Position numbers and translations under genes: made by a program. A stretch of 64,000 bases of DNA from a virus, in IMG/VR virus record IMGVR_UViG_3300047168_000120, positions 1 through 64,000 of that record. One strand, written 5' to 3'. The notes under the pieces are model-generated. The model did not search any database. It was not told the origin of the DNA and worked only from the letters and a program-made list of their open reading frames with translations. Below are positions 27,830 to 43,446 of the stretch, piece after piece (positions within the stretch are counted from its first letter, which is position 1; each line of letters begins with the position of its first letter).

Positions 27830-28222
27830 TTAGCGGCGATGCAGCGTATTTATTTCGACGCGCCGTGTGGCTTCCAGCGACCGGATGGCTTCGAACCGGG
27901 CTTGCGCTGCCTCATATTTGACGCGTGCCAGGTTCGCGTCCCGCCGCGCGTCCGCCGCGGCATAGAGGTGGTTCAGATAGTCCTCGCTGCCCTTTGCGAT
28001 ATCCTCTGATTCCTTGCGGGTCAGGTCAGGCTGCTCCCGGCGGATCGCATTGGTGAGCTGCGCCAGGACGGCGCCGGTCGTGCGCTCCAGAAGGTCAGCA
28101 GCGTGCTTTTTGTGCGCCCACGCGGTTCCGTGAACGTCGATATCATGCGCGATCGCCGCCGGGTCGAGCTCCCCGGCGGCGTTATGCGTTTTTGCATTTG
28201 GATCCCAGAAATCGCTCCCCAT
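27830..28222 (-). CDS. Hypothetical helical protein
   Basis: 130 aa, overlaps the recT stop. Confidence 0.6.
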   Translation of the reverse strand: MGSDFWDPNAKTHNAAGELDPAAIAHDIDVHGTAWAHKKHAADLLERTTGAVLAQLTNAIRREQPDLTRKESEDIAKGSEDYLNHLYAAADARRDANLARVKYEAAQARFEAIRSLEATRRVEINTLHRR

Positions 28223-29769
28223 CAGCCGGGGGCCGGAATCCCGAGGGCCTGCGACCTGGCGCTGATTTCCTTATAGGCCAGGATTTTCGGTTTGGTCAGC
28301 ATACCATTCAAGACTTCCTGATTGACCCGGCGCCATTCAGCCATCTGCTCAGGCGTTTTGATTTCGGCGAGGGCCTGCCGGAATGTGGTGATAATCTCGG
28401 CCTCATTGGTGCGGCCGGTCGGCAGCTCTACCACCTTCGCTTCCCATTTATCACTGCGCGACGCTTCAGCGCCCTGATTGTCATCGGAGGCATGCTGCGC
28501 CTGCCCTTGGCCGCCATAGCCAAGGGCGGCCATGATTTTGGTCGTGTCCGGATCTTCCATCGCGGTCAGGATGTGGTCGGAATTGTGCTCGTTATAGGCA
28601 TTGATCATATCGGGAGGCACGTCCCGGAAATGGTCCGCGAATTCCTTGGCCCAATCGACGATGTTGATCGCGTCGAGCAAAACTTCACCATCGGCCGATA
28701 TCAGTTGAAAGGTCTGCCGATCTTCCTCGTCGGGAAAGCGATCCTTCGGCGGTTCGTGCTGAGAGGAAGGGTCCCGCGCCGGCGCGGTCGTCCGGGCCGA
28801 CTCATGCTTCGCCGGCGCTTTGGCGCCCTGCTGCGCATTGCCAGACGCCTGAGAGGCCGGATTTTTGGATGCGACCTTCTCGGCCTGCACGTCGACCACC
28901 GGCGGCTTGAACCCAAAATCGTGCAGCGTGGCGCCTGGCGAATAGGTCAATTCCCGGTTGCCAAGACGCAAATCGCCGGCCGCGCCGCCATAGCTAAGCC
29001 GCCCGGCTTCCGCCAGATTATCGATGTAGGCCGCATGATAAAGCTGCTCGCTGGACTTCGGCAAATCCTTGAGAAGTTGCTTCATGATCGTTTTGCGGGC
29101 CATGGCATATTCAAATTTGACCCAGACGCATTTGTCCCAAATGTAGGACATTTTATCGCGCATCGAGTAGGCGAATTTATACGCTTCGGAGTCGTTCCGG
29201 ATTTCGAGAATATCCGCATAATCCCAATAGACAAATGCCTGACCCCCGCCTTTCAGTTTGGCATGGCAATACGCCTTCTCCGGCGTCCGGCCGCGCCGCG
29301 AGCCTCGGGAGATGTGCTTCAGATGGGCATCAGAGCCATATTCCGCCTCGAAAAGGTCGCCCTCATAAACCACGTCGGCGTGAATGCTTTCCAGCGTGTC
29401 GGCGCGGTAGGCCAGCGTGAGCATGCCCTGATAGCCAATCTGCGGGTCAAGGGTGACCTTTTCATTGGCCTTCCCCTTGTTTTTAATCCGGGGAATAATC
29501 CAGGCATGCCCAAACGGCGTGTTCGGCCGTAGCCCAAGCTCAGCCAGGTCGAGCGCGCACCGGATCAGCTCCCACAGGTCCGCCAGCTTGAACAGCTCGT
29601 CTTCGCGCGTCAGGTTGCGGATCGTGGCCAAATACTGGACGGCATCAAGGCGGTCCCCAAGCGCATTCTGGAACCGTTTGATGACTTCGGGATGATCAAC
29701 CGCCTCGTCGAGCGATTTGATTTCCTTGAGCGGCTTGTATTGATGCAGGCGTGGGATGGCTTCGGACAT
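28222..29769 (-). CDS. recT: RecT-family single-strand annealing protein with a long C-terminal extension
   Basis: ELGLRPN..GHAWIIP..QIGYQGML.LAYR..VYEGD.F..MARKTIMKQLLK.LPKS. Confidence 0.85.
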   Translation of the reverse strand: MSEAIPRLHQYKPLKEIKSLDEAVDHPEVIKRFQNALGDRLDAVQYLATIRNLTREDELFKLADLWELIRCALDLAELGLRPNTPFGHAWIIPRIKNKGKANEKVTLDPQIGYQGMLTLAYRADTLESIHADVVYEGDLFEAEYGSDAHLKHISRGSRRGRTPEKAYCHAKLKGGGQAFVYWDYADILEIRNDSEAYKFAYSMRDKMSYIWDKCVWVKFEYAMARKTIMKQLLKDLPKSSEQLYHAAYIDNLAEAGRLSYGGAAGDLRLGNRELTYSPGATLHDFGFKPPVVDVQAEKVASKNPASQASGNAQQGAKAPAKHESARTTAPARDPSSQHEPPKDRFPDEEDRQTFQLISADGEVLLDAINIVDWAKEFADHFRDVPPDMINAYNEHNSDHILTAMEDPDTTKIMAALGYGGQGQAQHASDDNQGAEASRSDKWEAKVVELPTGRTNEAEIITTFRQALAEIKTPEQMAEWRRVNQEVLNGMLTKPKILAYKEISARSQALGIPAPG

Positions 29770-29772
29770 GGA

Positions 29773-30573
29773 TCAGCTCCGGATCGTGGTTTTGTAGTCT
29801 TCAGAGATCTTGAGGCCGGGAATCGCGTCGATCCGGTTCTTGCCGTTGATTGCGGCCTTCACCTTGGACTCGTTGATCATCAGCCACTCCCGCGGCACCA
29901 GGTCGATGTTTTCGACCTCGAAGACGTACCGGATTGACCCGGACGACATGGAATAATTGCCACGAACCTGAGAAAATGCGGCGATGGGCGCGCCGGCGAC
30001 GCGGGCCGCCTGTTTGGCCTCTTCCGCCACGATCTCAGCCTGGTCCAGCATGTCGGCGCTCTCGGTCTGGATCGCGACCGCAGCCAGGCGGTCAGCGGCC
30101 ACCTTGGCGGCGGCGGCCTGCTCCTGCGCCAGCTTGCGCGCCGCTTCCGCCTTGTCCCGGGTAAACTTGGAAATTTTGGCCTCGATCGTTTTGACGGCTT
30201 TATCGAGGGGATCGTGGATGCCGAGGAAAAAGGCCTGCACCGCCTTGTCGGCCTGGAAAAACGGCGCTTTCACGATGACCCGGGTGTTTTCGACCAGCTT
30301 TGCCTGCGCCTTGATCTGGGCGCCCACGTCCGTTACGGCCGCCGCGTCGGCATCGGTTAGAATGCCGTCGGGATGATCGAGCCAAAAGTTGTCGCTCATC
30401 TCGATAAGGCGGTCCTTGCGCGTCAGCAGGGATTCATGCTCGACGCCAAGCAAATAGCGAAGACCTTCTGGGTCGAGCAGCTCAGCCCAGTTGGTTTGCG
30501 TCGCGCCCACATTATGGCCGATGGGGGCGGCGTTTTCCGAGTTGTTTTCAATACTTTGCAGGCGCAGTGACAT
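29773..30573 (-). CDS. Coiled-coil phage protein upstream of RecT
   Basis: C-term VENIDLVPREWL.INE..IPGLKI. Confidence 0.6.
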   Translation of the reverse strand: MSLRLQSIENNSENAAPIGHNVGATQTNWAELLDPEGLRYLLGVEHESLLTRKDRLIEMSDNFWLDHPDGILTDADAAAVTDVGAQIKAQAKLVENTRVIVKAPFFQADKAVQAFFLGIHDPLDKAVKTIEAKISKFTRDKAEAARKLAQEQAAAAKVAADRLAAVAIQTESADMLDQAEIVAEEAKQAARVAGAPIAAFSQVRGNYSMSSGSIRYVFEVENIDLVPREWLMINESKVKAAINGKNRIDAIPGLKISEDYKTTIRS

Positions 30574-30576
30574 GAT

Positions 30577-30918
30577 TTAACTCCAAACTGGTTGCATTTT
30601 TGTGAGGTCGACCGGCTGACGGGGATTAGCCGCGGGATGAGTCGGATCGTTCTTTTCGGCCCATGCTTTCAGCGCCAGGGCATGGTCGAACACTTCCTGG
30701 CTGACCATCTGGCCGCTTTCCCAAATCCGGACGATGGAACGGGATGCGAGGGGATCTTCTACCCTGGGTCCCTCCTCCACCCCGTTGATCTCGGCGCGCC
30801 ACCAACCGTTCTCCAGGATGATCCGGGCGGGCACGCGCTGCCCCTTTCGGACCAGGCGCAGCATGAAAATCCCGGGTTGCGGGGGCGATAGAATGTCGTG
30901 GGTATGTTCTTTCGGCAT
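30577..30918 (-). CDS. Hypothetical protein
   Basis: 113 aa; PGIFMLRLVRKG..PAANPRQPVDL. Confidence 0.6.
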   Translation of the reverse strand: MPKEHTHDILSPPQPGIFMLRLVRKGQRVPARIILENGWWRAEINGVEEGPRVEDPLASRSIVRIWESGQMVSQEVFDHALALKAWAEKNDPTHPAANPRQPVDLTKMQPVWS

Positions 30919-31011
30919 GCTAAACTATGGTCCTAAAAACACATTCGAGCCATTGCTCAGTGCGTTAAATGACACATTAAAATGTGGTTTACAAGTAAAA
31001 AGATGGCAATG

Positions 31012-31042
31012 AAAAACCCCCGAGGCCGAAGCCCCGGGGGTT
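31012..31042 (-). terminator. Intrinsic terminator closing the accessory-gene array
   Basis: CCCCCGGGGC-TTCG-GCCTCGGGGG-TTTTT on the minus strand. Confidence 0.8.
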
Positions 31043-31090
31043 GATAGCTGCCGCAAATGCGGCGACGGCAGGAATTGCTCGGTGTATGCC

Positions 31091-31333
31091 TTACAATTTG
31101 GTGTGCGGGACCAGCGACTGATTCAGCAGGGCGGCCAAGCGCTCCTGGCGCTCAGCATGGCGCACACCTTCCGCCTCAGCGGCCGGTATGCCCTTGTTGA
31201 TCAGATCGGCAATCGCGGTCGCCATAAACGAGTTGTCGCACATGGCGATCGCCTCGCCGTTGCGGTTCTGCACGATAGCTCCATTTGCCGTAACGGGCGT
31301 TTGAACCGTCGCGATGACGTCTAAATAGCTCAT
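31091..31333 (-). CDS. Small early protein
   Basis: GAGGAGAAAAAC-ATG. Confidence 0.7.
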   Translation of the reverse strand: MSYLDVIATVQTPVTANGAIVQNRNGEAIAMCDNSFMATAIADLINKGIPAAEAEGVRHAERQERLAALLNQSLVPHTKL

Positions 31334-31372
31334 GTTTTTCTCCTCAATGCCGGCTCATATGCCGGTGACCGC

Positions 31373-31660
31373 CTAGGCGGTTTCGCGCCGTTCGTAGGCT
31401 GGAAGGCCTTGGAGGCGCCGGTGCGTTTGATCCCGGAACGCAAATACAGCGTTCAGAGCGGCGTAGGAATCATCTTCTGCCTCAGGTACACCGGGAACCA
31501 GTAAGACGCCAGGCTCATAACCGTGCCTGGCACCTGCCTCGACGACCTCCCGCAGTTTGCTTTCGTTCGGCCACGCGGCGATCAGAAGCATGCCCTTTGG
31601 AATGCTCCGAGCGTTCGTGAACGTAATCAGGCCATTTCTATCGACATACGCTCTTGCCAT
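31373..31660 (-). CDS. Small early protein resembling a Mu-like-phage family often labelled host nuclease inhibitor
   Basis: ARHGY..LLVPGVPEA motif; strong RBS. Confidence 0.5.
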   Translation of the reverse strand: MARAYVDRNGLITFTNARSIPKGMLLIAAWPNESKLREVVEAGARHGYEPGVLLVPGVPEAEDDSYAALNAVFAFRDQTHRRLQGLPAYERRETA

Positions 31661-31705
31661 GTTTTTCTCCTCATAGCGCCACAATGGCGCCAACCCCGAA
31701 GGGTT

Positions 31706-32353
31706 TCAAATAACCGAATCGAGTATCCGGGCCGAAAGCACGGATATCTCGTAGGCTTCCTTCCAAGACCACACCTTCACGAAGGTGATCGGATAGGTGA
31801 CCATCTTACCATCGACAACGTGGACGACATCGATATGGGCATAATAGCCCTCGTTACCGCCACGTACCGGATAGCAGGCCGGCCAGCATCGGCCCTTTTC
31901 GCCGAGCGACTGCCAGCAGGGCCAAATATCATCCTTTGTGAGTTGAGAGTGACCCCACCTGCGATCTCTCCGATAAAAATTATCGGAGTCGCCAATGTGT
32001 GGAATGCCAGCATTACGCAATGCGATTTCAAGTTCCCTTAGAACGTCATCGATCTTGCGATTCTCCCAATCTATACATTCCCTCTTGGCAGATAGATCGA
32101 CATTGACATGTGGCTCAAATCCAGGCTTGGTCAGGAGCAGCTCCATCCAGTCATCCGACATGTTGGTAAATTGCTCCTGCCAGCCCTTGGCCATAGCCAT
32201 GGCTTCGATCGATGGGCGCAGATCCTGCAGAACGATGTCCTTGATGGGCTCGTCCGACGAGGACATGCGCTGCCATATGCGGCCCGCGGCAAAGCCGTGC
32301 GCATAGGAAGGCGATTGATCGGGAAAGGCAAAACTAAGTTGATATTCGGGCAT
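31706..32353 (-). CDS. Hypothetical protein
   Basis: GAGGAGAAAAAAC-ATG at 32353. Confidence 0.65.
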   Translation of the reverse strand: MPEYQLSFAFPDQSPSYAHGFAAGRIWQRMSSSDEPIKDIVLQDLRPSIEAMAMAKGWQEQFTNMSDDWMELLLTKPGFEPHVNVDLSAKRECIDWENRKIDDVLRELEIALRNAGIPHIGDSDNFYRRDRRWGHSQLTKDDIWPCWQSLGEKGRCWPACYPVRGGNEGYYAHIDVVHVVDGKMVTYPITFVKVWSWKEAYEISVLSARILDSVI

Positions 32354-32390
32354 GTTTTTTCTCCTCATGCTGCGGAATACAGCGACCGCG

Positions 32391-32783
32391 CTAAGCGGTT
32401 TCGGGGGTTGATCCGTGATCGGTTTCCCCTGCATCAAACAGCGCCTCCACACACTGATCGGAGAGTGCTTTGAGCTCCGCCCAATCTTCGTCATTTCCTC
32501 CATGCTGGCGCTGCTCGATTTCGTGGTCGATAATTGCCATACAGCGTTTCAGAAGTTCTGGGATCGCATTTTTGTGGGGTATTTCTTCGGTCTTTGTTTC
32601 ACCCCCGCAGTCGTCGCAATAAGCATGGTCATGGACTGATTCCAGTTCCCATTGTTGGGTTTCCAGGTTCCATGAAGCCCACGCATCTCGCTTGACATTT
32701 GGGCTTCGGCAAGACGAACAGACCACGTCGACAGGGTGAGGTATCCTCGTTTTGTCAACGTAAGGCGTGTTTGCGTAAGTCAT
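32391..32783 (-). CDS. Zn-ribbon hypothetical protein
   Basis: CSSCRSPNV.RDAWASW..Q.WEL..YCDDC. Confidence 0.65.
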   Translation of the reverse strand: MTYANTPYVDKTRIPHPVDVVCSSCRSPNVKRDAWASWNLETQQWELESVHDHAYCDDCGGETKTEEIPHKNAIPELLKRCMAIIDHEIEQRQHGGNDEDWAELKALSDQCVEALFDAGETDHGSTPETA

Positions 32784-32841
32784 ATGTTTCTCCTCACGCC
32801 GGCGGGATGCCGGCGACCCCGCAAGGGGTTTCGGTGGCCGG

Positions 32842-33417
32842 TTAGGCCGCGCCTTCCTTTTCGAGCCTCTTATCGAGGTCGCTGGTATCAGGAAGATCGA
32901 TGAAGTCCTTAATCGAATAGACGTGTACGAGCTCACTGCCATAGCGGCTCGCATTACCCTCGGGTTTTTCGACAATGTCGTAAAATTCGAGAGTTTCATC
33001 GTCCAGGTTCAAAATATAGCCGTATTCGCACCAGCTTTTCGGCTCAATGCCGAAGTTGCCGTCCAGGAAGACGCCGGCGTCTAGGCGTTGGAGGATCGAC
33101 CCTTGATGTTTCCGGCACAGGCAATACCAATCCTTGGTCGACTGTTTGGAAACGCTCAGATCGACGGCGCCCAGTTGTTGCATTTTGCGGATATCGCCAT
33201 CCGAAGGCGTGGAGTCTTGTGCAATCAGGCGCGCTGTACGCGCCTTTTGCTTCAGTTCGCCAATTACGTCTTCGTAAACGCGATTCTTGAAACGCTCCTG
33301 AAGCTCGGCCAATATCTCGGCGCCAACGCCGCTGGGGTAGCCGTCGAACTGATTGTACGAAAGCTTGTCGGCCTGGTCGATGCGAATACCGCATACTGAT
33401 CTTGTACCAATTTTCAT
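32842..33417 (-). CDS. Conserved phage protein (GTR..Y..DGYP..G..EYGY family)
   Basis: GTRS..YNQFDGYPSGVG..CEYGYILNLD. Confidence 0.65.
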   Translation of the reverse strand: MKIGTRSVCGIRIDQADKLSYNQFDGYPSGVGAEILAELQERFKNRVYEDVIGELKQKARTARLIAQDSTPSDGDIRKMQQLGAVDLSVSKQSTKDWYCLCRKHQGSILQRLDAGVFLDGNFGIEPKSWCEYGYILNLDDETLEFYDIVEKPEGNASRYGSELVHVYSIKDFIDLPDTSDLDKRLEKEGAA

Positions 33418-33471
33418 TCTCCTAATTAAAGTTTTCAAAAGCAGCTGTCTGCTGCAACCCCGGAAGGGGTT

Positions 33472-33717
33472 TCAGGTGTCGGGCAGGTCGGATTGCTCAC
33501 ACCGGACGACAAGTTCTTCGGTTCCGACGGCGTCCATGTATTCGAAATACCGGTCGATCGCCTCGGAATCATCCTTGGGAATCGGGCCTTCGACACCTTC
33601 TGGCCCCCAATTCGCGCGCGCATAGGCTGCGAGCTGGGATGTCAGGCCGGCCTCTGTTTTGTCCGAATAGGCGTTATACCCGTGGACGTGCCGCACTACG
33701 GCAACCCAAATTTTCAT
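33472..33717 (-). CDS. Small hypothetical protein
   Basis: GAGGAGAAAAC-ATG. Confidence 0.65.
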   Translation of the reverse strand: MKIWVAVVRHVHGYNAYSDKTEAGLTSQLAAYARANWGPEGVEGPIPKDDSEAIDRYFEYMDAVGTEELVVRCEQSDLPDT

Positions 33718-33811
33718 GTTTTCTCCTCTTCATTGGCGGCGCTGATGCCGCCGACCCGCGCGAGCGGGTTGCAGACAGTGTACTCAATGGCCGGTGAACC
33801 GGCCGACCGCA

Positions 33812-34108
33812 TTAAGCGGTTTCGCTGGGCGTCCCAAAGATCATTTCTGCGTCACGCTCATATTCCTGAACGGCCTTTTTCGCCGATGCTTCAAGAAATT
33901 CCCGCTGGCCTGGCTGTTCGATTGGATCCGATATTTGCTCGACTTGAATCATAAGCCCTTTTCCCAGGAATTCCTCGGGCGTTTGGGAATCGTATTCGTT
34001 CTCAAGGAACCCTACGAACCGGTTGAGGGCAGAATAAACCATCATGGCGAGAATCACGTATTTTCGCTCATTGGCGGTTTGGACCTTTGGATCGTCTGAA
34101 TTTTCCAT
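33812..34108 (-). CDS. Small hypothetical protein
   Basis: GAGGAGAAAAAC-ATG at 34108. Confidence 0.65.
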   Translation of the reverse strand: MENSDDPKVQTANERKYVILAMMVYSALNRFVGFLENEYDSQTPEEFLGKGLMIQVEQISDPIEQPGQREFLEASAKKAVQEYERDAEMIFGTPSETA

Positions 34109-34182
34109 GTTTTTCTCCTCATGGCGCCACAATGACGCCAACCGCCTTTCAGGCGGTTTCCTCAGAACGCATCACGCGCGCA

Positions 34183-34392
34183 TCAGATTTCCGACGGGAT
34201 GATCTTGATGAGCAAATAGGACGGTTCTTCATCCGCGTTGCCCTGCTGCTCATCAAGATCAGCGCCAAGGGTGTCTTCCAGTTCCTCGGGGATATTGTCG
34301 AACAATTTGCGGGCCTGTTTGCGGGTGATTACCGTACCGCTCCAGTTATCGGGCTGAGCGGCCGGCCAGGTATCTAAAATATCGTCTGGCAT
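34183..34392 (-). CDS. Small acidic hypothetical protein
   Basis: GAGGAGAAAGAT-ATG. Confidence 0.6.
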   Translation of the reverse strand: MPDDILDTWPAAQPDNWSGTVITRKQARKLFDNIPEELEDTLGADLDEQQGNADEEPSYLLIKIIPSEI

Positions 34393-34454
34393 ATCTTTCT
34401 CCTCATGCTGCGGAATTGCAGCGACACACCGCCCCTTTGGGGGCGGCGGTTTCC

Positions 34455-35654
34455 TTAGAACGCGTTACGCGCCGCTTTATCCATGACCTTGGCGCCGATC
34501 CGTTCGAGATCGAGGCGGCGGTCCTGGTGCTCAATGGTGCGAGCGACGGCGGTAATGCCCTGGCAGAAATCCCAGGCGCTGGTGGCAGGATGACCTTCCT
34601 CGCGTTCCACGGTATCCAGGATCTTCCGGCTTTGAACCTTTGAAAAATCCAGGGTCTTGAGAAACGCCATGCGGTCATCGTCGTCACGCGCGACTTTGGC
34701 TTCCTTGGCAGCGGTAATGCCGGCGATGAGCTTGTTGGGCTCACTGAGGGCATAACGCTTCAGGGCGGGTTCCGCGTCGCGTGCAAAGCGATCCGGCGCG
34801 AAACGCGTGTGGTTGATCTTCATGGTGTCAAACCCTTCGACACCCCAGAGATTGCGGTTCATGCAAACGCCGCGCAGCATGAAAGTAGCGATGCCGAGCG
34901 ACCTGCTGCCCACCTCAGAGTTCCAGGCATAGAAGCCGCGGAACACGTAATCGGGATCGCCGTTATCCAGCTTACCGATTTCGATGGGATGCGTGTCGTC
35001 AACCAGGAAAAGAAACACGTCGCGATCCGATGCATACAGCGTCGTACTCTCGGTCGTGGGCGAAACGTACGGATTGTACGTCTGTTTCGCCCAGTCAATC
35101 TGCCCCGGGATTTTCCAGCAGGTATCACCCGTCCCGTCGCCGGCGATGCGTTGCACCGCTTCGCCGAGCGTATGGTCCATGATCCGGCCGTAGCCGTCGC
35201 TGGTGAAGGCCCGTGCGTGGCGCGATTTGTCGTTCCAATAAAGCATGGAATTGAGATCGCGCTTCACGGTCAGGTCATCCATCAGATTGACCGCCGTGAG
35301 AAAGGCCGGCTTTTCACGCAGATACGAAGCAGGTGCGCCCGCGAGCGAGCACATCTGGCCGAATACATGGTGGGTAAGACCCAGCGGCTCACCACCATCG
35401 GGCGGCGCCAGGAACAGATTTCGTGTGTCTTCCTTGCTTGCGACAAGGCGCAGATCGCGGGCATCGATGACATCTTCCTTCATCCCGACGGAGCGGGCTT
35501 CGAGAGAGGCCATGAGCGCGGAAATGCTCGTGAACCGCTGGTCGGCCGGCCGCGAAAACCATTCCTGGCTGACGCGGCTGTTGTTAGAGCCACGCGTCGC
35601 ATCGATGCGGCGCTCCCCGACCACCGGGGTATTGTCAATGATGTGTGTATCCAT
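34455..35654 (-). CDS. DUF932-family protein
   Basis: SQEWFSRPADQRF..LYASDRDVFLFLVD..RGFYAWNSEVG..CMNRNLWG. Confidence 0.8.
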   Translation of the reverse strand: MDTHIIDNTPVVGERRIDATRGSNNSRVSQEWFSRPADQRFTSISALMASLEARSVGMKEDVIDARDLRLVASKEDTRNLFLAPPDGGEPLGLTHHVFGQMCSLAGAPASYLREKPAFLTAVNLMDDLTVKRDLNSMLYWNDKSRHARAFTSDGYGRIMDHTLGEAVQRIAGDGTGDTCWKIPGQIDWAKQTYNPYVSPTTESTTLYASDRDVFLFLVDDTHPIEIGKLDNGDPDYVFRGFYAWNSEVGSRSLGIATFMLRGVCMNRNLWGVEGFDTMKINHTRFAPDRFARDAEPALKRYALSEPNKLIAGITAAKEAKVARDDDDRMAFLKTLDFSKVQSRKILDTVEREEGHPATSAWDFCQGITAVARTIEHQDRRLDLERIGAKVMDKAARNAF

Positions 35655-35845
35655 TCTTCGATTCTCCTTTTCAGTTGCAGCGTCGCGCCTCGCGGAATTG
35701 CGAAAGCGTTATCTGCGGACCCCGGAGGGTTTCGGGAGGTATTACACACTAATATGTGTTTTTTGGAAGAAAAGTAAAGAATAAAAATGTGTTTCTGAAA
35801 TGATTTTCCAGCCAGCGAAATGCTGGCAACCGGCCGGAGCCGGTT

Positions 35846-36445
35846 TCATCTTTCTACGTGCTTGAGCACCTTGCGCTGAATTTCATTGGCGAGGCCAAAA
35901 TAGGTCAGCCGCATCATGGGGTCGCTCAGCATGCTTTCCGCTTCCGCTTCCGCGGGGAATTTGGACCCCACGGAATCCAAAACCGCTTTGTTTTCCGGGT
36001 TAGCCCGGAACATTGCGGTTTTGGTGGCCCAGATGTAGAGCTCTGCCATGTGCTCGCTAAGAGGTGCTTCCAGGGAAGCCTCATACATCACCATGGCGAA
36101 TTCAGTCGGACCGACTGGAAGTTCGGTCAGGGCGAGCGCCCATTTCAGGCGATCAGCGACGATGAAGTGTTTGAACTGCTCGTTTTGCGTCAGTGGATGA
36201 TGCTGGAGCTCGCGCGTGCGGCTATGGCAGATGATAGGTCCGCCAACGAATTTAATCCGATAGCCAGCGATCTTCAGACGATGAATTCCGGCGCCAAGCG
36301 ATAGCATCGCGGCGATAAGCTGCCCGCTCATGCCAATCAGCGCCAGAGGCTCCAGCCTTTGATAGAGGCTTTCAGCCACGGATTTTTCGTCTGGAAAATT
36401 AGTCCGAGCCGCATCATCCATGATGTTCAAAATGTTCTGGTCCAT
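35846..36445 (-). CDS. Hypothetical protein
   Basis: 199 aa, strong RBS. Confidence 0.65.
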   Translation of the reverse strand: MDQNILNIMDDAARTNFPDEKSVAESLYQRLEPLALIGMSGQLIAAMLSLGAGIHRLKIAGYRIKFVGGPIICHSRTRELQHHPLTQNEQFKHFIVADRLKWALALTELPVGPTEFAMVMYEASLEAPLSEHMAELYIWATKTAMFRANPENKAVLDSVGSKFPAEAEAESMLSDPMMRLTYFGLANEIQRKVLKHVER

Positions 36446-36493
36446 GTTTTTCTCCTCAATACCGGCAGGGATGCCGGCAACCCCAAAGGGGTT

Positions 36494-36844
36494 TCAGGAA
36501 GCGCGGATCAGCCGGCTCACGGCCAGGATGCCATTCTCATCACGTTCAGCGCCTTGATAGGGGCTGGTTGCCGGGTAAACGATATCGGTCCTGTCCGGGC
36601 AAAGTTTTGCCGCGGCAAGAGCCGCTATCTGGCTCACGATGAGATAGGTTTTTGGCCGGGAATCCGGCAGGTTCTGGATGCCGATTGTGCGGCTTGGCGC
36701 GTGGATCGTAACGCCATCCTCTGAAGTGACGGCTGGCCCCATGCGCGTTTTTATTCGCACCGGGGGACCATCAGGTTCAATGATCCTCACGCATCCGTCG
36801 CATTTCAGCGATATGACGTGGGGTGTTAAATTCAAGATTTTCAT
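36494..36844 (-). CDS. Conserved phage NLTPH-motif protein
   Basis: MKILNLTPH..LP..YLIVS..R.DIVYP..RDENG. Confidence 0.65.
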   Translation of the reverse strand: MKILNLTPHVISLKCDGCVRIIEPDGPPVRIKTRMGPAVTSEDGVTIHAPSRTIGIQNLPDSRPKTYLIVSQIAALAAAKLCPDRTDIVYPATSPYQGAERDENGILAVSRLIRAS

Positions 36845-36890
36845 GGGGGTTCTCAAACCGGCGGGATGCCGGCAACCGGCCGGGCCGGTT

Positions 36891-37211
36891 TCAGAAGGTA
36901 GGACGGGCTTTTTTGCGGGCCACCAGATGTTTTAAAGACCTTATTTTCCCGATGGGATATGTGCGGGTCATTGATTTCAACGTCGATCCGAAGCGGCGCT
37001 CCAACTTCACCTCAATGAAGCTATTTTTAGCCAGCTTGCAGAAAGCGAAATCGCCACCTTTTTCCTTTAAAAGCTCCGAAACAAATGTTTCGATGTTCGC
37101 AGCGCGTTTGCGCTTGCACCGAGACATGTCTGCAGTCAATGACATCTGGCAAAGAGTGCCGTCATAAATTGGACCGATCATATGACCGTGCAAAGTGGTT
37201 GAAATTCTCAT
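36891..37211 (-). CDS. Small basic hypothetical protein
   Basis: GAGGAGAAAAAC-ATG at 37211. Confidence 0.6.
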   Translation of the reverse strand: MRISTTLHGHMIGPIYDGTLCQMSLTADMSRCKRKRAANIETFVSELLKEKGGDFAFCKLAKNSFIEVKLERRFGSTLKSMTRTYPIGKIRSLKHLVARKKARPTF

Positions 37212-37259
37212 GTTTTTCTCCTCATGGCGCCACAATGGCGCCAACCGGCTGTGCCGGTT

Positions 37260-37754
37260 TCAATCAAGCAGGTGCTTCACCTGCCCATCGATCAGACTGT
37301 GAACCAACTCCTCAGATAGATCGTCCAGGATCGCCTGAGACAGATCTTGAACCTCAAGAAAACGCAACTCGCCAACGCGATCCGCGATATCTCTATTGGC
37401 CCATCGTTCACATATATTTTCGATCAAGCTTCCATCTGAATGGAGATTGGCACTTCGAAAGAGTTCCTCTTTCGAGGTTGCTACGATCTCTGACCAGGCC
37501 GCTCTGATTTGTGGGTTTTTCCAGTGTTTTTTTTCGATGAGCAGGACGATTTCACTATCGGTAGGAACAACAGGCGTCGGGATTTTTTTATGAACGCGGT
37601 GGCCGAGGTAGTGAAGCATCGCGAACGTTACTTCGATATCCTCGCCAACCGCCAAACCGGCGTAGTTTTCCAGGTTTTCATCTTCATTGCTGAAATAATC
37701 CCAGCATGCTGTTCCGGCATCCTTTTCAGGAGTTTCGAAAATTGTGAAGTTCAT
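37260..37754 (-). CDS. Hypothetical protein
   Basis: GAGGAAAAC-ATG. Confidence 0.6.
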   Translation of the reverse strand: MNFTIFETPEKDAGTACWDYFSNEDENLENYAGLAVGEDIEVTFAMLHYLGHRVHKKIPTPVVPTDSEIVLLIEKKHWKNPQIRAAWSEIVATSKEELFRSANLHSDGSLIENICERWANRDIADRVGELRFLEVQDLSQAILDDLSEELVHSLIDGQVKHLLD

Positions 37755-37797
37755 GTTTTCCTCATGCTCACCGGGGATATCCGGCGGCGACCGCCTT

Positions 37798-38055
37798 TCA
37801 GACGGTTTCTGGAAATGTCCAGTTGTAGGGCGGCTCGTCTATGAAGACGGCAGCCCTGGCTTCTTCTGAGCCGTTTCGATTCGAGGCTGCGATCTTCAGT
37901 ATAGAATAGTCGCTGTAACCCGCCAGCATCCGAACCACATTCCACCAGGATTCTGGATCGTAGCAAAGCCGGGCGATTTCCCGCGGGGTCATCTGCAGGG
38001 ATGAATTATCCTCGAATTTCACGGCAAGATAATCTTCTTGTCTTGCGCGTGGCAT
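37798..38055 (-). CDS. Small hypothetical protein
   Basis: GGAGAAAAAAC-ATG at 38055. Confidence 0.6.
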   Translation of the reverse strand: MPRARQEDYLAVKFEDNSSLQMTPREIARLCYDPESWWNVVRMLAGYSDYSILKIAASNRNGSEEARAAVFIDEPPYNWTFPETV

Positions 38056-38091
38056 GTTTTTTCTCCGCCGGCGGGATGCCGGCAACCGCCT

Positions 38092-38331
38092 TCAGGCGGT
38101 TTCTTTTTGGCGAGTAGGTATATGGAATGCATCAGCCGGTTCAACACATCTCTCAATGTTGCCTTCCGGCGCCAGCTCGTAGATATAAATCTGGAACAGT
38201 CCAATACCCAGCTCGCCATTGTGAGCCTGCGTGATAAAGACATCACGCGCAGCCTTGGCTTTTTCCAGGCTCGGATACTGACCGAATATATGAAGGTCAT
38301 CTCCTCGCCAAACCTGGACTTGGTGTTTCAT
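38092..38331 (-). CDS. Small hypothetical protein
   Basis: Follows a GAGGAG RBS; ends ETA* inside a repeat element. Confidence 0.55.
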   Translation of the reverse strand: MKHQVQVWRGDDLHIFGQYPSLEKAKAARDVFITQAHNGELGIGLFQIYIYELAPEGNIERCVEPADAFHIPTRQKETA

Positions 38332-38393
38332 GACATGTTTCTCCTCAATGCGGCGAATGCCGCGAATACCAGACGTTCCCGCCTGGTATTTTC

Positions 38394-38528
38394 CTAAAGG
38401 CCGAGCAGTTTCACGATCAGGAAGATCGTGATGCCGACGGCCAAAGCGTCGCCGACGCGCCCAATAAACGAAAGAATGATGGCGACTGCGATCAGCGTTC
38501 CGAAGAACTCACCGATGAGTGTCAGCAT
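38394..38528 (-). CDS. 44-aa membrane peptide (not in the ORF track)
   Basis: MLTLIGEFFGTLIAVAIILSFIGRVGDALAVGITIFLIVKLLGL*; the stop abuts the last repeat element. Confidence 0.5.
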   Translation of the reverse strand: MLTLIGEFFGTLIAVAIILSFIGRVGDALAVGITIFLIVKLLGL

Positions 38529-38706
38529 CTTCCACCGTTTTGATTTGGACGGCGCCGCGCGCCGCTTGTTGAATGGCCAGCGGTTCGCTCATGTTGAAGC
38601 GCTTGCCGCCGGAGAAGTACCAGCACTTGGTTCGACCCGTGCTGGAGTATTTTCGGAACACCGTGATTACGGATTTTCCGGGTTCGGTGTTTTCCACATT
38701 GCTCAC
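38509..38706 (-). CDS. Small hypothetical protein
   Basis: GTGA overlap with the upstream gene. Confidence 0.45.
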   Translation of the reverse strand: MSNVENTEPGKSVITVFRKYSSTGRTKCWYFSGGKRFNMSEPLAIQQAARGAVQIKTVEDADTHR

Positions 38707-39131
38707 GCTGCGACCAGGCTCAGATTTGTGTCTGATTTCTGGACCCAGAGCGGATATCGCTGGAATTTCAGGCCGCGCAGGCTGATCGGAGCGTCCAGCA
38801 ACGTGATGCTGTCGGAATCGATCTCCCCGGCGCGCGCCGGCGGTTCGCCGGCGGCCGTGGACAGGGCGATAAAATATCGCGTCCCGTCCGGCCGGAAGGT
38901 CTGACCATTGCAGCGCACAAGAAGCGCTTCATGGTCTTCGGCCCGGTGATGACCATAAATCACCAATTCCAGCTTCCCGGTCGGAAATTCGTAGCTTGGC
39001 CCCACCCGATAGGCATGGGTCAACGTTTTGCAATACAGATCGACGAAAGCCGGCTTGAACCGGCGCAGCAGATATTTCCGCGTTTTGGGCGGGATATCGA
39101 CTGCAATTCGCACAAAGGATGTGTTTGTCAT
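38703..39131 (-). CDS. Hypothetical protein, first gene of the leftward array
   Basis: AAGGAG RBS; AT-rich promoter/operator upstream. Confidence 0.6.
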   Translation of the reverse strand: MTNTSFVRIAVDIPPKTRKYLLRRFKPAFVDLYCKTLTHAYRVGPSYEFPTGKLELVIYGHHRAEDHEALLVRCNGQTFRPDGTRYFIALSTAAGEPPARAGEIDSDSITLLDAPISLRGLKFQRYPLWVQKSDTNLSLVAA

Positions 39132-39204
39132 TCGACTAACTCCTTATTTTTATGGCATTATTGCCTATCGATATATAATGATTCCGGTTCCAAAATCAAG
39201 ATAA

Positions 39205-39224
39205 AAACACATTTTAATGTGGTT
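39205..39224. promoter_or_regulatory. Operator copy between the divergent array and helicase genes
   Basis: AAACACAT-TTTA-ATGTGGTT. Confidence 0.7.
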
Positions 39225-39262
39225 AGCAATGTGCCATAAACCCGCCACCACAACGAAAAAGG

Positions 39263-40717
39263 ATGCCGATAATGCCTGTTGACCAGCCCCTGCTCGGTCT
39301 TTCGATGAGAATTCCACCCGCCAATGTCCAGGCCGAGCAATCTCTCCTCGGCGCTATATTGGCCAACAACAAAGCGTTCGACCGGGTTGGCCATTTTCTG
39401 AGGCCGGAGCATTTTGCTGACCCATTCCATGGCAGGCTCTTTGGCGAGATCAGCCGGTTGATCCTTGAGGGCAAGGTCGCTGATCCAATAACCCTGCGCC
39501 CCTGGTTCCAGGCACAGCCTGACTGGGACGAGATGCCAGGCGGAGCGGCCTATATGGCGCAGCTGCTATCCGCGATGGTCGGCATCATCAATGCCGCCGA
39601 TTATGGGCGATCGATCCAGGATTCCTGGGCGAAGCGGCAAATCATCGACCGCGCAGAGCTGATGGTGGAAATGGCGTTTTCCGAAAATATGCGGGCCGAG
39701 GACATCGTGAACACCACCGTCACGGCGCTGGAAAGCACCATGCTGCTGCACGGCGATGTGGTAGAGGTCAGCCTCCAGGCAGCCTCAGAGCTGGTTTTCA
39801 ACACAATGAGCGACGCGATGGGGGGAAAGACGTCCCCAATTTTCTCGACTGGCATCGCAGACCTGGACGCCATCCTGGGCGGCGGCCTTAAGCTACGGCA
39901 CCTGAACATCCTCGGTGGCCGGCCGGGCCACGGCAAGAGCGCGCTGGCGCGGCAGGTCCTACTCTTCATAGCGCAGGAATACAAAATGCCCGTCCATGTC
40001 ATTTCGTTGGAAATGACGGCCGAGGATCAGGCCGCGTGCGCGCTCGGGACGTATGCCGGGATCTCCGCTGACCGAATCGAACAGGGGCGCCTAAGCACGG
40101 CGGAAGCCATGCGCGTCTTTGATGCCAAGAAAGGGTTCGCTGATCTCAGGGTATTTTTCGATGACCGCCCGCGGTTGAATCTCGACCAGATCAGAATGGG
40201 AATCCGTCAATTCAGACGAAAATACGTCAAGAAAAATGAGCCTTTCCTTGTGGTTATCGATCACATGCACCTGATTTCCTTGAACAGCCGCACCGTGAAG
40301 GGCGGCCTCGGCCTGGTCTTCGCAATCGGCGAGAATGCGAACGGTCTGAAGGAGCTGGCGAAGGACGAAAATTGCAGCGTTCTGGCGCTGGCGCAGTTGA
40401 GCCGCAACAAAGAGGGATCGGAGGACAAGGTGCCAACCCTCGGAGATTTAAAGAATTCTGGCGATATAGAGGCTGCGGCTGACAAGGTGTTCTTCACGCA
40501 TCGCCCAGAACTTCACCTGCATAAATCGAAGCCCAGCCGGAAGCCGAATGAGAGCGATTCAGAGTATGCGGCGCGCGAGATCGCTTACCAGGCGCTCGTG
40601 GAGCAGGAAGCCGGCGTCGTGCATCTTGTCAGCGCAAAGGTGCGCCAGGGCCGCACCGGTGCCATTCAGATGCGCTTTGACGGCGAGACGACGGCCTTTT
40701 TGAGCCTGCATCAATGA
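39263..40717 (+). CDS. dnaB: Replicative DNA helicase, DnaB family
   Basis: PPANVQAEQSLLGAIL; GGRPGHGKS; VVIDHMHL; LAQLSR; DLKNSGDIEAAAD; KVRQGRTG. Confidence 0.92.
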   Translation: MPIMPVDQPLLGLSMRIPPANVQAEQSLLGAILANNKAFDRVGHFLRPEHFADPFHGRLFGEISRLILEGKVADPITLRPWFQAQPDWDEMPGGAAYMAQLLSAMVGIINAADYGRSIQDSWAKRQIIDRAELMVEMAFSENMRAEDIVNTTVTALESTMLLHGDVVEVSLQAASELVFNTMSDAMGGKTSPIFSTGIADLDAILGGGLKLRHLNILGGRPGHGKSALARQVLLFIAQEYKMPVHVISLEMTAEDQAACALGTYAGISADRIEQGRLSTAEAMRVFDAKKGFADLRVFFDDRPRLNLDQIRMGIRQFRRKYVKKNEPFLVVIDHMHLISLNSRTVKGGLGLVFAIGENANGLKELAKDENCSVLALAQLSRNKEGSEDKVPTLGDLKNSGDIEAAADKVFFTHRPELHLHKSKPSRKPNESDSEYAAREIAYQALVEQEAGVVHLVSAKVRQGRTGAIQMRFDGETTAFLSLHQ

Positions 40718-41862
40718 GCGACCGCGAGACACCATGGTTCAAATTTTACCCCTCTGATTGGCAGGCAGATACCAACCTTGGAACCTGCAGTCTCGGGGCC
40801 CGCGGGCTGTGGATGGAGCTCTTATCCATCATGCACAAGTCGGAAAGATACGGTTTTTTGCTCATTTCTGACTCAAAACCGAGCATAAAACAGCTCGCTT
40901 TTGTGTGCAGAACTGAGCCAAAAAATGTCGAAAAATATCTCCAAGAATTGCGCAAATTTGGGGTTTTGTCTGAAACAGCCGATGGAATAATATTCTCCCG
41001 CCGAATGGTAAAGGATCGGGAGGGAAGCTCCATTTTGTCTGATGCCGGGTCGACCGGTGGCAACCCTAACATTCGGCGCGGAACCGTACGAAAAGACCTT
41101 CGAAAACGCTCCTACAGACGCTCAGACGCACCGGCAAAAACGAAAAGAATATTTGAAAAAACAGAAGGTTGTTGCATATGGTGCGGCGTCCATCTCGATG
41201 AAAATGGCGAAGGTCAAAACGCCTTCCAGATCGACTATATAAAGCCGGTTTGCGACGGCGGTAATCACGATGAAAGCAACCTGGTTCCCTCATGCGGGGA
41301 CTGCAAAAATTCGCGGTCAATTGGAAAAAATTTCTATAAAAAGCCATTTAGGCCGGAGTGGCGGATATACGTTCCGACCGATTCCGACGTTAACGTCGGA
41401 CGCGATTCCGACACTAAGCCCGACCATAAGCCCCATATACCAGAGACCAGAGACCAGAAAGAAAGAGTTCCGATTCCTTCGGAATCGGCGCCGGCGCTGC
41501 CGGCGCTCCCTGGGGTGATCATCGATGTGCGCACCCAGCTTTTCCGGGACGGCCTGGAAATCCTGCGGCGCCTCACCGGCAAATCGGAGGGCGCCTGCCG
41601 GACTTTCCTGGGCAAGCTGCTCAGGGAGGCCGGCGACGACTGCGAGCTGGCGCTGCGCAAGCTGCGCGAGGCGGCCGAAACGCCTCCAGCCGACCCGGGA
41701 GCTTGGCTCATGGCCGCGGTCAAAAAAGGTTCGGTTCCGAAAAAAAGCGCAAAAACCGAGGCGATGGAAAAAATTTCCGCGAGGCTTGACGCGGGTGGCA
41801 AAAACACACAAAGATGTGTTTTGACCATCGACGGCGAAGCGGAGCGGGAACTGGATGTTTAA
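40714..41862 (+). CDS. Replication initiator-like protein with a degenerate HNH-like Zn domain
   Basis: PWFKFYPSDW..CSLGARGLWMELL..IFSRRMV; CIWCG..IDYIKP..GG..SNLVPSCGDC. Confidence 0.7.
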   Translation: MSDRETPWFKFYPSDWQADTNLGTCSLGARGLWMELLSIMHKSERYGFLLISDSKPSIKQLAFVCRTEPKNVEKYLQELRKFGVLSETADGIIFSRRMVKDREGSSILSDAGSTGGNPNIRRGTVRKDLRKRSYRRSDAPAKTKRIFEKTEGCCIWCGVHLDENGEGQNAFQIDYIKPVCDGGNHDESNLVPSCGDCKNSRSIGKNFYKKPFRPEWRIYVPTDSDVNVGRDSDTKPDHKPHIPETRDQKERVPIPSESAPALPALPGVIIDVRTQLFRDGLEILRRLTGKSEGACRTFLGKLLREAGDDCELALRKLREAAETPPADPGAWLMAAVKKGSVPKKSAKTEAMEKISARLDAGGKNTQRCVLTIDGEAERELDV

Positions 41863-42406
41863 GGTTTTGGAACGGATTGGAATCAATATCAGCCACCCGG
41901 CTGCGCAATCCCTGAATTACCTCAAATCCACCGACATCGCCATGTTTCCCCCCTCACCGCGGCGCCTGGCCGATTGCGGGTTTTTGATGAACCTGCTGAT
42001 GGTTTATTTTTCCGGGATCACGCTGGCCGAGGCCACGGATTGGTTCGGCAGCGTCGTTGCCGGCACCAAAACCGGGTCGCTGGATGCGACCGAGATCGAG
42101 GCGCGGTGGAACGCGTTCGCGTTCAGCGTCGAGGGCAAGCCGAAATGCCTGTTCGACGACGCCTTGAAGCGCGAGGTCCTGTTGAAGTTTTCCTGGCTTC
42201 CGACGGCCGCCGAGGTCTGGGCTTTGGTGGAACCGGAATATGCTGAATTTCAGTCTGTATTGCTGCATTTGAACAAGATTTTGGGGCGCCCTTTCCGTGC
42301 AGCCCTTCCCTCCTTCGCCGAGATCGAAGAGCACGGATGGGCCATCGACCCGGCCGCAAAGCCTGCGATCGTATCAGTCCCGATTCGGGCGCTCAGCCAG
42401 GCTTAA
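41855..42406 (+). CDS. Hypothetical replication-associated protein
   Basis: Overlaps the initiator; F.WLPTAAEV motif. Confidence 0.5.
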   Translation: MFKVLERIGINISHPAAQSLNYLKSTDIAMFPPSPRRLADCGFLMNLLMVYFSGITLAEATDWFGSVVAGTKTGSLDATEIEARWNAFAFSVEGKPKCLFDDALKREVLLKFSWLPTAAEVWALVEPEYAEFQSVLLHLNKILGRPFRAALPSFAEIEEHGWAIDPAAKPAIVSVPIRALSQA

Positions 42407-42929
42407 AGCCGGCCGGCAGCCCATACAGCCGCGGGAACGGGAGCGCCTTTACCGGCACCTGGCGGCTCCGTAATACGGCATCGAAATCCTCAATCGAATA
42501 AACGACCACGTGAAGATGGGCCAGGCGAACAGCAGCGTCCCGGAATATGCGTTGCGGGCGTGATAATCGCCCTGCCTTTCGGTCCGGCGTCAGTCCCGGT
42601 ATTCCGGCCAGCTCCGGGACCTTCACTTCGATCAGCGTCGTAGCAGCGCCATCGGTGAGTAGGATCAGGTCGACAGCCCCCGGCAGAACGCCCTGCCCGG
42701 CCGGCACCAGGAAAGCCTCGTCTGGCTTGAATCTCTCTACCTCAGCATCCTTTTTCCTCTTACGGCCAGTCAACATGCTGGCCGTGGAAGGGTCCCTCTT
42801 CTCGCCATTCGGCACCGCGAAAAGAATGGCGTCGCCTGGCCGCACCACGGCGGCGAAATAGGCGACGATCGAGGCCTGGAGGTCTCGCTCGGGATGCGCC
42901 CTTGGAGAGGTCAGCTTGAAGGGTTTCAT
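42393..42929 (-). CDS. VRR-NUC / PD-(D/E)xK nuclease
   Basis: ERDLQ..AVPNG..GVLPGAVDL..IEVK..GRLSRPQ. Confidence 0.8.
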   Translation of the reverse strand: MKPFKLTSPRAHPERDLQASIVAYFAAVVRPGDAILFAVPNGEKRDPSTASMLTGRKRKKDAEVERFKPDEAFLVPAGQGVLPGAVDLILLTDGAATTLIEVKVPELAGIPGLTPDRKAGRLSRPQRIFRDAAVRLAHLHVVVYSIEDFDAVLRSRQVPVKALPFPRLYGLPAGFKPG

Positions 42930-43068
42930 ACGGGGCGACCACCTGGGGTCGTGCCGATTTTCCTCAATAAACTTCTGGTTTTATTGAGGGTTTTTCGCTG
43001 TAACGAATGTGTGAAATTCCGTTCATATTTTAGACAATAACATTGCAAAGAAGGTATTTTAACGCCTA

Positions 43069-43383
43069 TTAAGAATTCGCAACACATTTTGGTGTTACTT
43101 TTGGTATGTCTTTTGAGGTGGAACTTATGTGCGGCTCTGCGTTCTGGTTCAGGTCTTTTTTCGGAGCGGCGCGGAGTTTAACCCCAGGGTTTTTTTCAAG
43201 GTAATCCAATGTTTTCTGAACGGCGCGCAACGTGGTTATCGATGGCTCCCAGCCTGGCTTTAACATGCCTTGCAGCGTGTTCGGGTGCAGCCCAGATTTT
43301 ATGGCGATTCCTCGAATCGGTTGGCCGCTTCCCTTTACCTGCTTCACGACATGGACGATCAGCTTATCGATATCTTGCGTCAT
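43069..43383 (-). CDS. Cro-like HTH protein
   Basis: IRGIAIKSGLHPNTL..WEPSITTLRAV; divergent from the repressor. Confidence 0.65.
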   Translation of the reverse strand: MTQDIDKLIVHVVKQVKGSGQPIRGIAIKSGLHPNTLQGMLKPGWEPSITTLRAVQKTLDYLEKNPGVKLRAAPKKDLNQNAEPHISSTSKDIPKVTPKCVANS

Positions 43384-43394
43384 CGCGCGAATCA

Positions 43395-43414: not shown

Positions 43415-43446
43415 TTCAATAGTTTTGCCTTCAAATTCACAACATA

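Follow-up and report, generated by a model that had tools for sequence, protein, structure and literature searches.

Why does nearly every junction between the small early genes of one phage carry the same two-hairpin RNA module, and what would this module do there? The question is raised by IMG/VR record IMGVR_UViG_3300047168_000120, the 95.5-kb record of an uncultured temperate phage (from here: G000), of which positions 1 to 64,000 (64,000 nucleotides, nt; from here: the window) contain 19 copies of the module, all on the minus strand. Here we report that both hairpins are under strong compensatory covariation and that the unpaired letters around them correspond to the core of type II hammerhead ribozymes. 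As the best explanation, to which we give about an even chance, we propose that the elements are hammerhead-derived junction modules that would combine a portable ribosome binding site (RBS), an insulator and a recombination linker, their autonomous cutting being weak, assisted or lost.

Architecture and pairing of the junction element

The original prediction had described 19 double-hairpin copies on the minus strand. All of these sites are present with the architecture given there, and a strict sequence pattern (6 matches observed versus 0.07 expected by chance) and a covariance model agree on it. The copies lie within operator-bounded early operons, 17 of them at 31340–38393 and two outlying ones at 44669–44707 and 45084–45122. 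An element begins with GAAAC, followed by hairpin 1, which is closed by an A-U pair, one unpaired C or U, hairpin 2, one or two further letters and TGA, usually running into GGAG-N7-ATG. Expressed in hammerhead terms, hairpin 1 is stem III, the unpaired C/U occupies the cleavage-site position (H17) and hairpin 2 is stem I, with about 6 bp and a uniform loop of 5–6 nt that has A as its first letter and contains very little G (21 among about 500 loop letters). The hairpin stems comprise 5–7 bp and the elements 40–50 nt.

The covariance model was trained on 17 of the 19 window copies and recovered these at E values of 3e-19 to 7e-9. It also detected the copy at 38341–38393 (E 7e-4), and the copy at 35664–35733 was only marginal (E 0.19) because of a long insertion in its second hairpin. 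In a model scan of the entire 95.5-kb record, no copies were found beyond the 19 and none on the plus strand; a weak match at 44432–44484 falls within a coding region and was not counted.

Compensatory changes occur in 8 of 11 base pairs among the window copies. When 94 copies from four phages (G000 and the three sister phages introduced below) were aligned, 97.3% of the cells were paired compared to 74.3% in shuffles, and double-change cells numbered 180 compared to 52; sliding the partner columns against each other lowered the pairing to 17–47%. The earlier remark that the stems vary but keep pairing is thus borne out. Individual copies fold as two neighbouring hairpins with z-scores of −2 to −4, as exemplified by element 4 (Table 1) with a minimum free energy (MFE) of −24.2 kcal/mol and a z-score of −3.8, in which a cut equivalent to that of a hammerhead would separate 37243 from 37242.

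The overlap of the element with the reading frames on both sides was likewise found as described before. The upstream stop codon is the TGA of TGAAAC in 7 copies and lies inside the loop of hairpin 1 in 6 others (GAA ACC GCN TGA/TAA/TAG), while the 3′ end of the element is an RBS, the GGAG of the UGA-N-GA strand doubling as the Shine-Dalgarno (SD) sequence of the next gene. Hence, open reading frame (ORF), element and RBS are packed without spare letters. The TGA is kept in copies lacking an RBS (36892, 33473, 33823, 45122 and 44707).

Relationship to type II hammerhead ribozymes

Pattern scans of IMG/VR yielded three sister phages of 93–101 kb with the same arrays, namely G001 with about 22, G007 with 25 and G008 with at least 31 copies, whose structural and replication proteins are 30–55% identical to those of G000. 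A core table in hammerhead numbering was compiled from 92 parsed copies of the four phages. G12-A13-A14 is present in 90 of these 92, H17 is C in 74, U in 16, A in 2 and never G, and U4-G5-A6 is found in 83. Position N7 is free (G 48, A 19, U 9, C 7), G8 occurs in 63/83 and A9 in 80/83 copies. The pair G10.1-C11.1 is present in 41 of the 43 copies of G001 and G007. In G007 the 3′ strand reads UGA(G/A/C/U)GAG, and the constraint is therefore on UGANGA, which is more than an SD. Moreover, U3 goes together with A8 above expectation (7/16 versus 9/67, p = 0.011, a value that is indicative only since the copies are non-independent), and U3-A8 covariation is seen in natural hammerheads (Perreault et al. 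2011, PMC3088659).

The comparison with Rfam that had been suggested along with the original prediction was positive for the sister arrays, in which three copies exceed the gathering score of 37 for Hammerhead_II (RF02276) with 42.7, 41.4 and 37.9 bits, but negative for the window, where no hammerhead match at E ≤ 10 was obtained in 29000–47000 and the search against all families returned only chance-level matches (Thr_leader, Pseudomon-groES and others). About 17 further subthreshold Hammerhead_II matches were obtained in the sister arrays, with no other family recurring. Three sister copies possess a stem II of 5–7 bp, and one of them conforms to the canonical form at all positions, with U3-A8. 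The two distal copies of the G007 array (locus L183, 3452–3495 and 4764–4810, at about 23494 and 24809 of the record) have a full stem II of 6–7 bp, and in one of these the core is compensated by U3-A8, so that a single operon contains canonical as well as stripped-down copies. The model built from the window also matches the canonical GGAC-GAAAC...CUGANGA-GUCC arrays of unrelated phages.

Within the window, all 19 copies show the type II strand order with no nucleotide between A14 and stem III, and 14 of the 16 parsed copies also have none between H17 and stem I. GAA is present in 17 of 19 (GCA in 33772 and 44707), an A-U pair closes stem III in all, and H17 is C or U, never G. Among the 16 parsed copies, UGA occurs in 14 (absent in 38103 and 35847), G8 in 9 (A in 3 and U in 2 others), A9 wherever UGA is present, and a linker of 1 nt before U4 in only 8; the three copies read by hand all contain UGA. 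As judged from these sequence comparisons, the hammerhead likeness, whose order and core letters the original prediction had recognized, is true homology, and we place the elements within the type II hammerhead family or among its descendants.

Nevertheless, there is no canonical copy in the window, where each copy deviates in one or more features on which hammerhead speed is known to depend. A C3-G8 pair is missing from all 19. Position 3 is A in 6, U in 6 and G in 2 of the 16 parsed copies, and the copies read by hand add one A, C and U each. In combination with position 8, the states are A3/G8 (6), U3-A8 (3), U3.G8 (3), G3 (2) and C3/A8 (1). The earlier statement that C3 is usually A, U or G and that stem II is absent stands for the window, with the correction that copy 35733, the only one with C3, has it opposite A8. 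GCA replaces GAA in two copies, UGA is absent in two and G8 in five. Consecutive pairs from 10.1/11.1 in the cis flanks of the window copies amount to 0.93 bp compared to 0.95 bp in mismatched controls (maximum 3), so stem II is at chance level. In all four phages, loop I is no more complementary to the 3′ tail, to the 5′ flank or to the core strand than in permuted controls, giving no loop I pseudoknot. In the nine copies with H17 = U, the MFE fold pairs H17 with A14, and in some copies position 3 pairs with H17. Completion of stem II in a dimer or in trans was ruled out on topology, and masking of the SD by pairing between the copy-specific, C/U-rich loop I and the UGAGGAG strand was not above permuted controls.

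Related arrays were also sought in bacterial genomes, and after filtering by the model two Acetobacteraceae loci were kept; the other matches listed were mostly single and probably due to chance. The cultured isolate Falsiroseomonas sp. CW058 (NZ_JBNXUO010000021.1) carries a related prophage array with 6 model matches and the 3′ strand UUGAGGAG, and an uncultured Acetobacteraceae metagenome-assembled genome (MAG; CAXSHI010000013.1) carries a related array with 5 model matches and the 3′ strand CAGAGGA/CAGACGAGG, in which U4 is replaced by A. Both encode a terminase that is 41–47% identical to that of G000, and the host of this phage is therefore probably an acetobacter-type alphaproteobacterium. 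The dominant letter at position 3 differs by genome, being A in G000, G007 and G008, C in G001 and U in Falsiroseomonas. Hairpin sequences are homogenised within genomes as well; one hairpin 1 sequence occurs about 17 times in G008. Position 3 thus looks weakly constrained and homogenised within genomes.

Type II hammerheads clustered around single genes have been described in prophages, including those of Agrobacterium and Azorhizobium, and cleavage of polycistronic RNA was shown for them (Perreault et al. 2011, PMC3088659). The elements of the window resemble these clusters in the strand order of the core, the location after a stop codon and ahead of the following gene in phage polycistronic units, the variable accessory (anti-restriction-type) neighbourhood, the alphaproteobacterial prophage setting and the proposed role, the conversion of long transcripts into gene-length mRNAs. 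The described loci contain 2–3 ribozymes with consensus cores and demonstrated cleavage, whereas here 19 copies (20–31 in the sister phages) are distributed over essentially all junctions, with the SD forming part of the 3′ strand that corresponds to the catalytic one, and the C3-G8 pair, stem II and the pseudoknot are missing. With the Rfam family RF02276, the order GAAAC-stem III-GUC-stem I-(N)UGANGA aligns column for column, but the conserved 3′ tail that pairs with loop I in that family has no counterpart. A natural hammerhead with a stem II of 1 bp (Perreault et al. 2011) is matched by 41 of the 43 copies of G001 and G007, in which stem II is reduced to G10.1-C11.1, while in the window not even the pair 10.1-11.1 is kept; that ribozyme possesses a 6-bp pseudoknot between loop I and the 3′ tail, the shortening of which costs 20-fold to more than 100-fold in rate, and no such pairing is detectable here.

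The same pattern scans also returned unrelated uncultured phage contigs (G002–G005) with 6–8 textbook type II hammerheads per array on one strand. Canonical arrays are present in IMG/VR 3300031824_000004, 3300006755_000004, 3300037478_000157 and 3300018084_000020 (L171–L174), with a 4-bp stem II (GGAC/GUCC or GAUC/GAUC) located just before AGGAGG-ATG; despite perfect cores, most of these copies reach 30–33 bits, below the Rfam gathering cut-off. The arrays of G002–G005 share with G000 the placement of one element per junction directly upstream of an SD and AUG, but differ by C3, the 4-bp stem II and a separate downstream SD. In the regions compared, no protein homology to G000 was detected. 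Work from the Weinberg laboratory has shown type II hammerheads to be active in vivo in the neighbourhood of phage-like genes (PMC8782182). Gene-flanking phage hammerheads have been known since 2011. What is new here is the scale, with one module per gene and 19 to about 31 modules in a genome, and the way in which the catalytic strand merges with the SD and the 5′ strand with the stop codon. Also new is that C3, stem II and the tertiary contact have been lost systematically, although the remaining core is retained.

Cassette turnover and the proposed function of the modules

The gene content of the arrays differs between relatives. Among 88 element-following ORFs in the four phages, only 11 pairs are common between phages at E < 1e-4, and these stand at different array ranks; the DUF932 gene and the first gene, encoding a 142-aa protein, are the only constants. 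The DNA of this phage occurs in moss metagenomes, and no RNA run was listed as containing the 7.3-kb stretch compared. Contigs of two other moss metagenomes join position 31661 to 32356, by which exactly one gene and one element are lost. At this joint, 13 letters of the segment GAGGAGAAAAACATG, which belongs to its RBS part, are identical. The idea that the elements mark cassette boundaries, advanced in the original prediction, has thus gained ground, relatives differing by cassette and a one-cassette deletion being joined inside two elements. In addition, the elements ending at 33823 and 33772 (33723–33823, minus strand) form a tandem with a gap of about 11 nt and no intervening ORF, which looks like the scar of a lost cassette. 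Turnover, homogenisation, tandem copies and the exonuclease/RecT pair together fit a gain and loss of cassettes by recombination between elements. The accessory gene cassettes are probably anti-defence genes. In a further contig joint, from 29298 to 37318 (X7/X8), the two sides are separated by 26 foreign letters.

The start-associated sequences of cluster K mycobacteriophages and the T4-type promoter-stem-loop cassettes (PeSL) are portable expression signals that recur next to accessory genes and mark sites of gene shuffling. These are DNA or RBS motifs, or units of a promoter and a hairpin, without a ribozyme core. The elements described here resemble them as a portable repeated signal at shuffled accessory genes, but differ by the ribozyme core and by the lack of promoter enrichment in the array (12 promoter-like sites versus 10 expected). 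The RNase III sites of T7-type early mRNA consist of about 20 bp of (interrupted) double-stranded RNA between cistrons, and the element stems, with only 5–7 bp, do not fit this type.

In the explanation that we favour, diverged descendants of type II hammerheads would serve as the standard joints between the small accessory genes of early leftward operons. Without a C3-G8 pair, stem II and the tertiary pseudoknot, the window copies would have lost what fast autonomous cutting needs, so that the modules would act mainly as expression and insulation units. The stable first hairpin could cap the upstream message or cistron, and the second hairpin, directly 5′ of an unpaired and exposed SD, could provide each cassette with a standard, insulated translation start. 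At the DNA level, the elements might offer short patches of homology at which the phage exonuclease and RecT swap, delete and add cassettes, and a leftover slow or assisted cleavage 3′ of GUY is possible.

Several observations weigh against this explanation. The residues of the chemistry other than position 3 (G12, G8, G5, A6, A9) and the exclusion of G from H17 are kept although the proteins are only 30–55% identical, which is easier to explain if the fold still cuts; the SD could account for G8-A9-G10.1, but not for UGA and GAAAC. C3 is kept in 12 of 18 copies of the sister phage G001, and activity is known for a natural hammerhead whose stem II has only 1 bp, though it depends on a pseudoknot that is absent here (Perreault et al. 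2011, PMC3088659). Moreover, the insulator and linker roles are ones that we infer, and the deletion joint is carried by one low-depth contig per run in two runs at about 90% identity.

The strongest competitor, which we consider doubtful although it deserves serious weight, is that the elements are working, self-cleaving minimal hammerheads that would cleave 3′ of GUC/GUU although they have no real stem II and position 3 is mostly A (or U). The early polycistronic RNA would then be split into single-gene messages, the upstream piece ending in the stem III hairpin and the downstream piece starting with a 5′-OH, the stem I hairpin and the RBS. Such activity is suggested by the conservation of all core positions except 3 in four phages that have diverged from each other, N7 being free and G never occurring at H17, by the Rfam-grade and full-stem-II copies in the same arrays of sister phages, and by the compensated U3-A8 of the three SD-less U3 copies in the window; for clustered hammerheads of prophages, cleavage of polycistronic RNA has been demonstrated both in vitro and in vivo, and stem II can be as small as 1–2 bp (Perreault et al. 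2011, PMC3088659). But the loss of the pseudoknot cost the documented 1-bp-stem-II hammerhead more than 100-fold in rate (ibid.), and the window has neither a pseudoknot nor a stem II above chance nor C3-G8, with A3 opposite G8 as its commonest state. GCA in two copies, the absence of UGA or G8 from several, the possible pairing of H17 = U with A14, and the dominance of A, C or U at position 3 depending on the genome, as if this position were weakly constrained, argue in the same direction. A variant of self-cleavage that we regard as improbable is a new hammerhead subclass without stem II and with A/U3, in which the ribosome, either as the 30S subunit at the fused SD or on termination at the G12-A13 stop, would hold or release the open ends and GGAG, coupling cleavage to translation.

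Still less probable in our estimate are sites for a protein, either a host or phage endoribonuclease or a translational regulator, that would bind the two-hairpin fold together with GAAAC and UGA, the hammerhead likeness being only ancestral or irrelevant. The uniform, A-first and G-poor loop of stem I would suit such a site, and the 142-aa protein heads the array in all four phages, but this protein has neither a Pfam family nor a fold match, and no candidate for a binding protein emerged; compensatory changes let the stems vary freely, so the helix sequence is not read, and the homogenisation of hairpins within each genome, which might point to a protein, is equally expected from gene conversion. 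A DNA-level function as folded single-strand sites for a site-specific recombinase, comparable to the attC sites of integron cassettes, is already disfavoured and appears very remote. One element per gene, the AAC...GTT base of hairpin 1, the turnover of gene content at the elements and a tyrosine integrase in the genome are compatible with it. Against these stand the two short, separate hairpins of 40–50 nt in place of one long imperfect palindrome of 55–140 nt with extrahelical bases, an integrase that is an ordinary Phage_integrase about 10 kb away adjoining tRNA genes, a deletion joint in a 13-nt identical RBS stretch that fits homologous recombination and not a G/TT cut, and conserved letters that match an RNA catalytic core and a sense-strand RBS.

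The purpose of gene-flanking hammerheads in phages has remained unproven since 2011, and this clade represents an extreme form of the design, which breaks rules thought essential for catalysis yet keeps most catalytic residues at 30–55% protein identity. If the copies cut, the minimal requirements of hammerheads would need revising and the link to translation would be directly testable; if they do not, they would be a clear example from nature of a ribozyme fold put to new use as gene joint, insulator and recombination linker. The related array in the cultured isolate Falsiroseomonas sp. CW058 brings the system within reach at the bench and makes the question experimentally approachable.

Phage context and feature list

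The record contains tail genes, tRNA-Ser, tRNA-Thr and genes for an integrase, RecT, DnaB, terminase and portal protein. A 20-bp palindrome of the type AAACACA-N6-TGTGTTT occurs at 18 sites (with up to 3 mismatches) compared to 1.2 expected and probably serves the phage repressor, or else some other regulator, as operator. The sites include 20636, 27788, 30970, 35742, 39205, 41802, 43395, 46298, 46934, 47964 and 62387 in the window and lie mostly in AT-rich gaps heading transcription units. The array sits in leftward units that start at the operators 39205 and 35742 and end at the terminator-like hairpin 31042–31015 (Table 1). The DUF932 protein is the sole array ORF with a Pfam family, and its gene was the only match in a DNA similarity comparison with isolate phages and plasmids. 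For the 142-aa protein, whose gene is first in the array operon of all four phages, no Pfam family and a single PHROG of unknown function were found; Foldseek against PDB gave nothing under E 0.26 with a structure model of mediocre confidence (predicted local distance difference test, pLDDT, 63). The terminases of the closest isolates are about 35% identical to that of G000, and RecT peptide patterns turned up no relatives. The RecET-like pair of exonuclease and annealing protein could drive recombination between short repeated joints.

Table 1 Junction elements and neighbouring features of the window. Bits and E values are those of the covariance model
Feature	Position	Strand	Characteristics
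Element 1	38341–38393	−	GAA; 8-bp stem III; H17 = C; stem I GCGGC/GCCGC; AU+UGAGGAG (U3.G8 wobble); upstream TAG abuts G12; 16.2 bits, E 7e-4
Element 2	38063–38103	−	GAA; H17 = U; stem I GCCGGC; without UGA, GGAG directly after stem I; upstream stop UGA in loop III; 47.1 bits
Element 3	37759–37809	−	GAA; H17 = C; irregular hairpin 2; AGCA+UGAGGA; stop in loop III (ETV*); 30.7 bits
Element 4	37218–37261	−	UGAAAC (stop overlaps G12-A13); H17 = U; A3-UGAGGAG fused to SD; 50.9 bits
Element 5	36850–36892	−	H17 = U; U3-UGAGAA (compensated U3-A8); no GGAG; 46.7 bits
Element 6	36452–36495	−	H17 = U; AU+UGAGGAG (U3.G8); 44.9 bits
Element 7	35808–35847	−	Last of upstream transcription unit; hairpins intact, then UGGAAAA (A6 = G); followed by operator region, no RBS or gene; 43.8 bits
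Element 8	35664–35733	−	Leader of DUF932 gene; H17 = C; long interrupted hairpin 2; C3-UGAAAA (C3 opposite A8), then GGAG; 10.3 bits, E 0.19, marginal
Element 9	34399–34453	−	Extended, bulged stem III; H17 = C; A3-UGAGGAG; 30.7 bits
Element 10	34115–34160	−	H17 = U; A3-UGAGGAG; 51.7 bits
Element 11	33784–33823	−	H17 = C; AU+UGAGUA (position 8 = U); no RBS; element 12 about 11 nt on (empty tandem junction); 38.8 bits
Element 12	33723–33772	−	GCA for GAA (A13 = C); H17 = C; AA+UGAAGA+GGAG; 37.7 bits
Element 13	33435–33473	−	H17 = U; UUU+UGAAAA (U3-A8); SD about 15 nt further downstream; 28.4 bits
Element 14	32790–32832	−	H17 = C; G3-UGAGGAG; G3 can pair with C17, lengthening hairpin 2; 53.6 bits
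Element 15	32361–32402	−	H17 = C; A3-UGAGGAG; stop in loop III (ETA*); one-cassette deletion joint has one side at the 3′ end; 44.4 bits
Element 16	31667–31707	−	UGAAAC; H17 = U; A3-UGAGGAG; deletion joint has its other side (31661) at the 3′ end; 43.1 bits
Element 17	31340–31384	−	H17 = C; CAU+UGAGGAG; stop in loop III (ETA*); 45.4 bits
Element 18	45084–45122	−	Outlying, after 266-aa gene; H17 = U; G3-UGAUUA; no adjacent SD; 36.9 bits
Element 19	44669–44707	−	Outlying, AT-rich leader; GCA (A13 = C); H17 = C; U3-UGAUAA (U3-A8); no adjacent SD; 31.9 bits
Operator (likely)	39205–39224		Divergent gap; heads upstream part of array
Operator (likely)	35742–35761		AT-rich gap before DUF932 gene; heads downstream part of array
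Intrinsic terminator-like hairpin	31015–31042	−	12 bp and T run; just past last array gene; closes unit
142-aa protein	38703–39131	−	Function not assigned; invariant RPDG and LS motifs
Exonuclease (PHROG)	29773–30573	−	Directly downstream of array terminator
RecT-family annealing protein	28222–29769	−	Forms RecET-like pair with exonuclease (28222–30573)

On the antisense (plus) strand of elements 7 and 2, at 35828–35845 and 38084–38101, hairpin 1 and the complement of GAAA make up a weak terminator-like site (hairpin followed by TTTC...), which is probably incidental.

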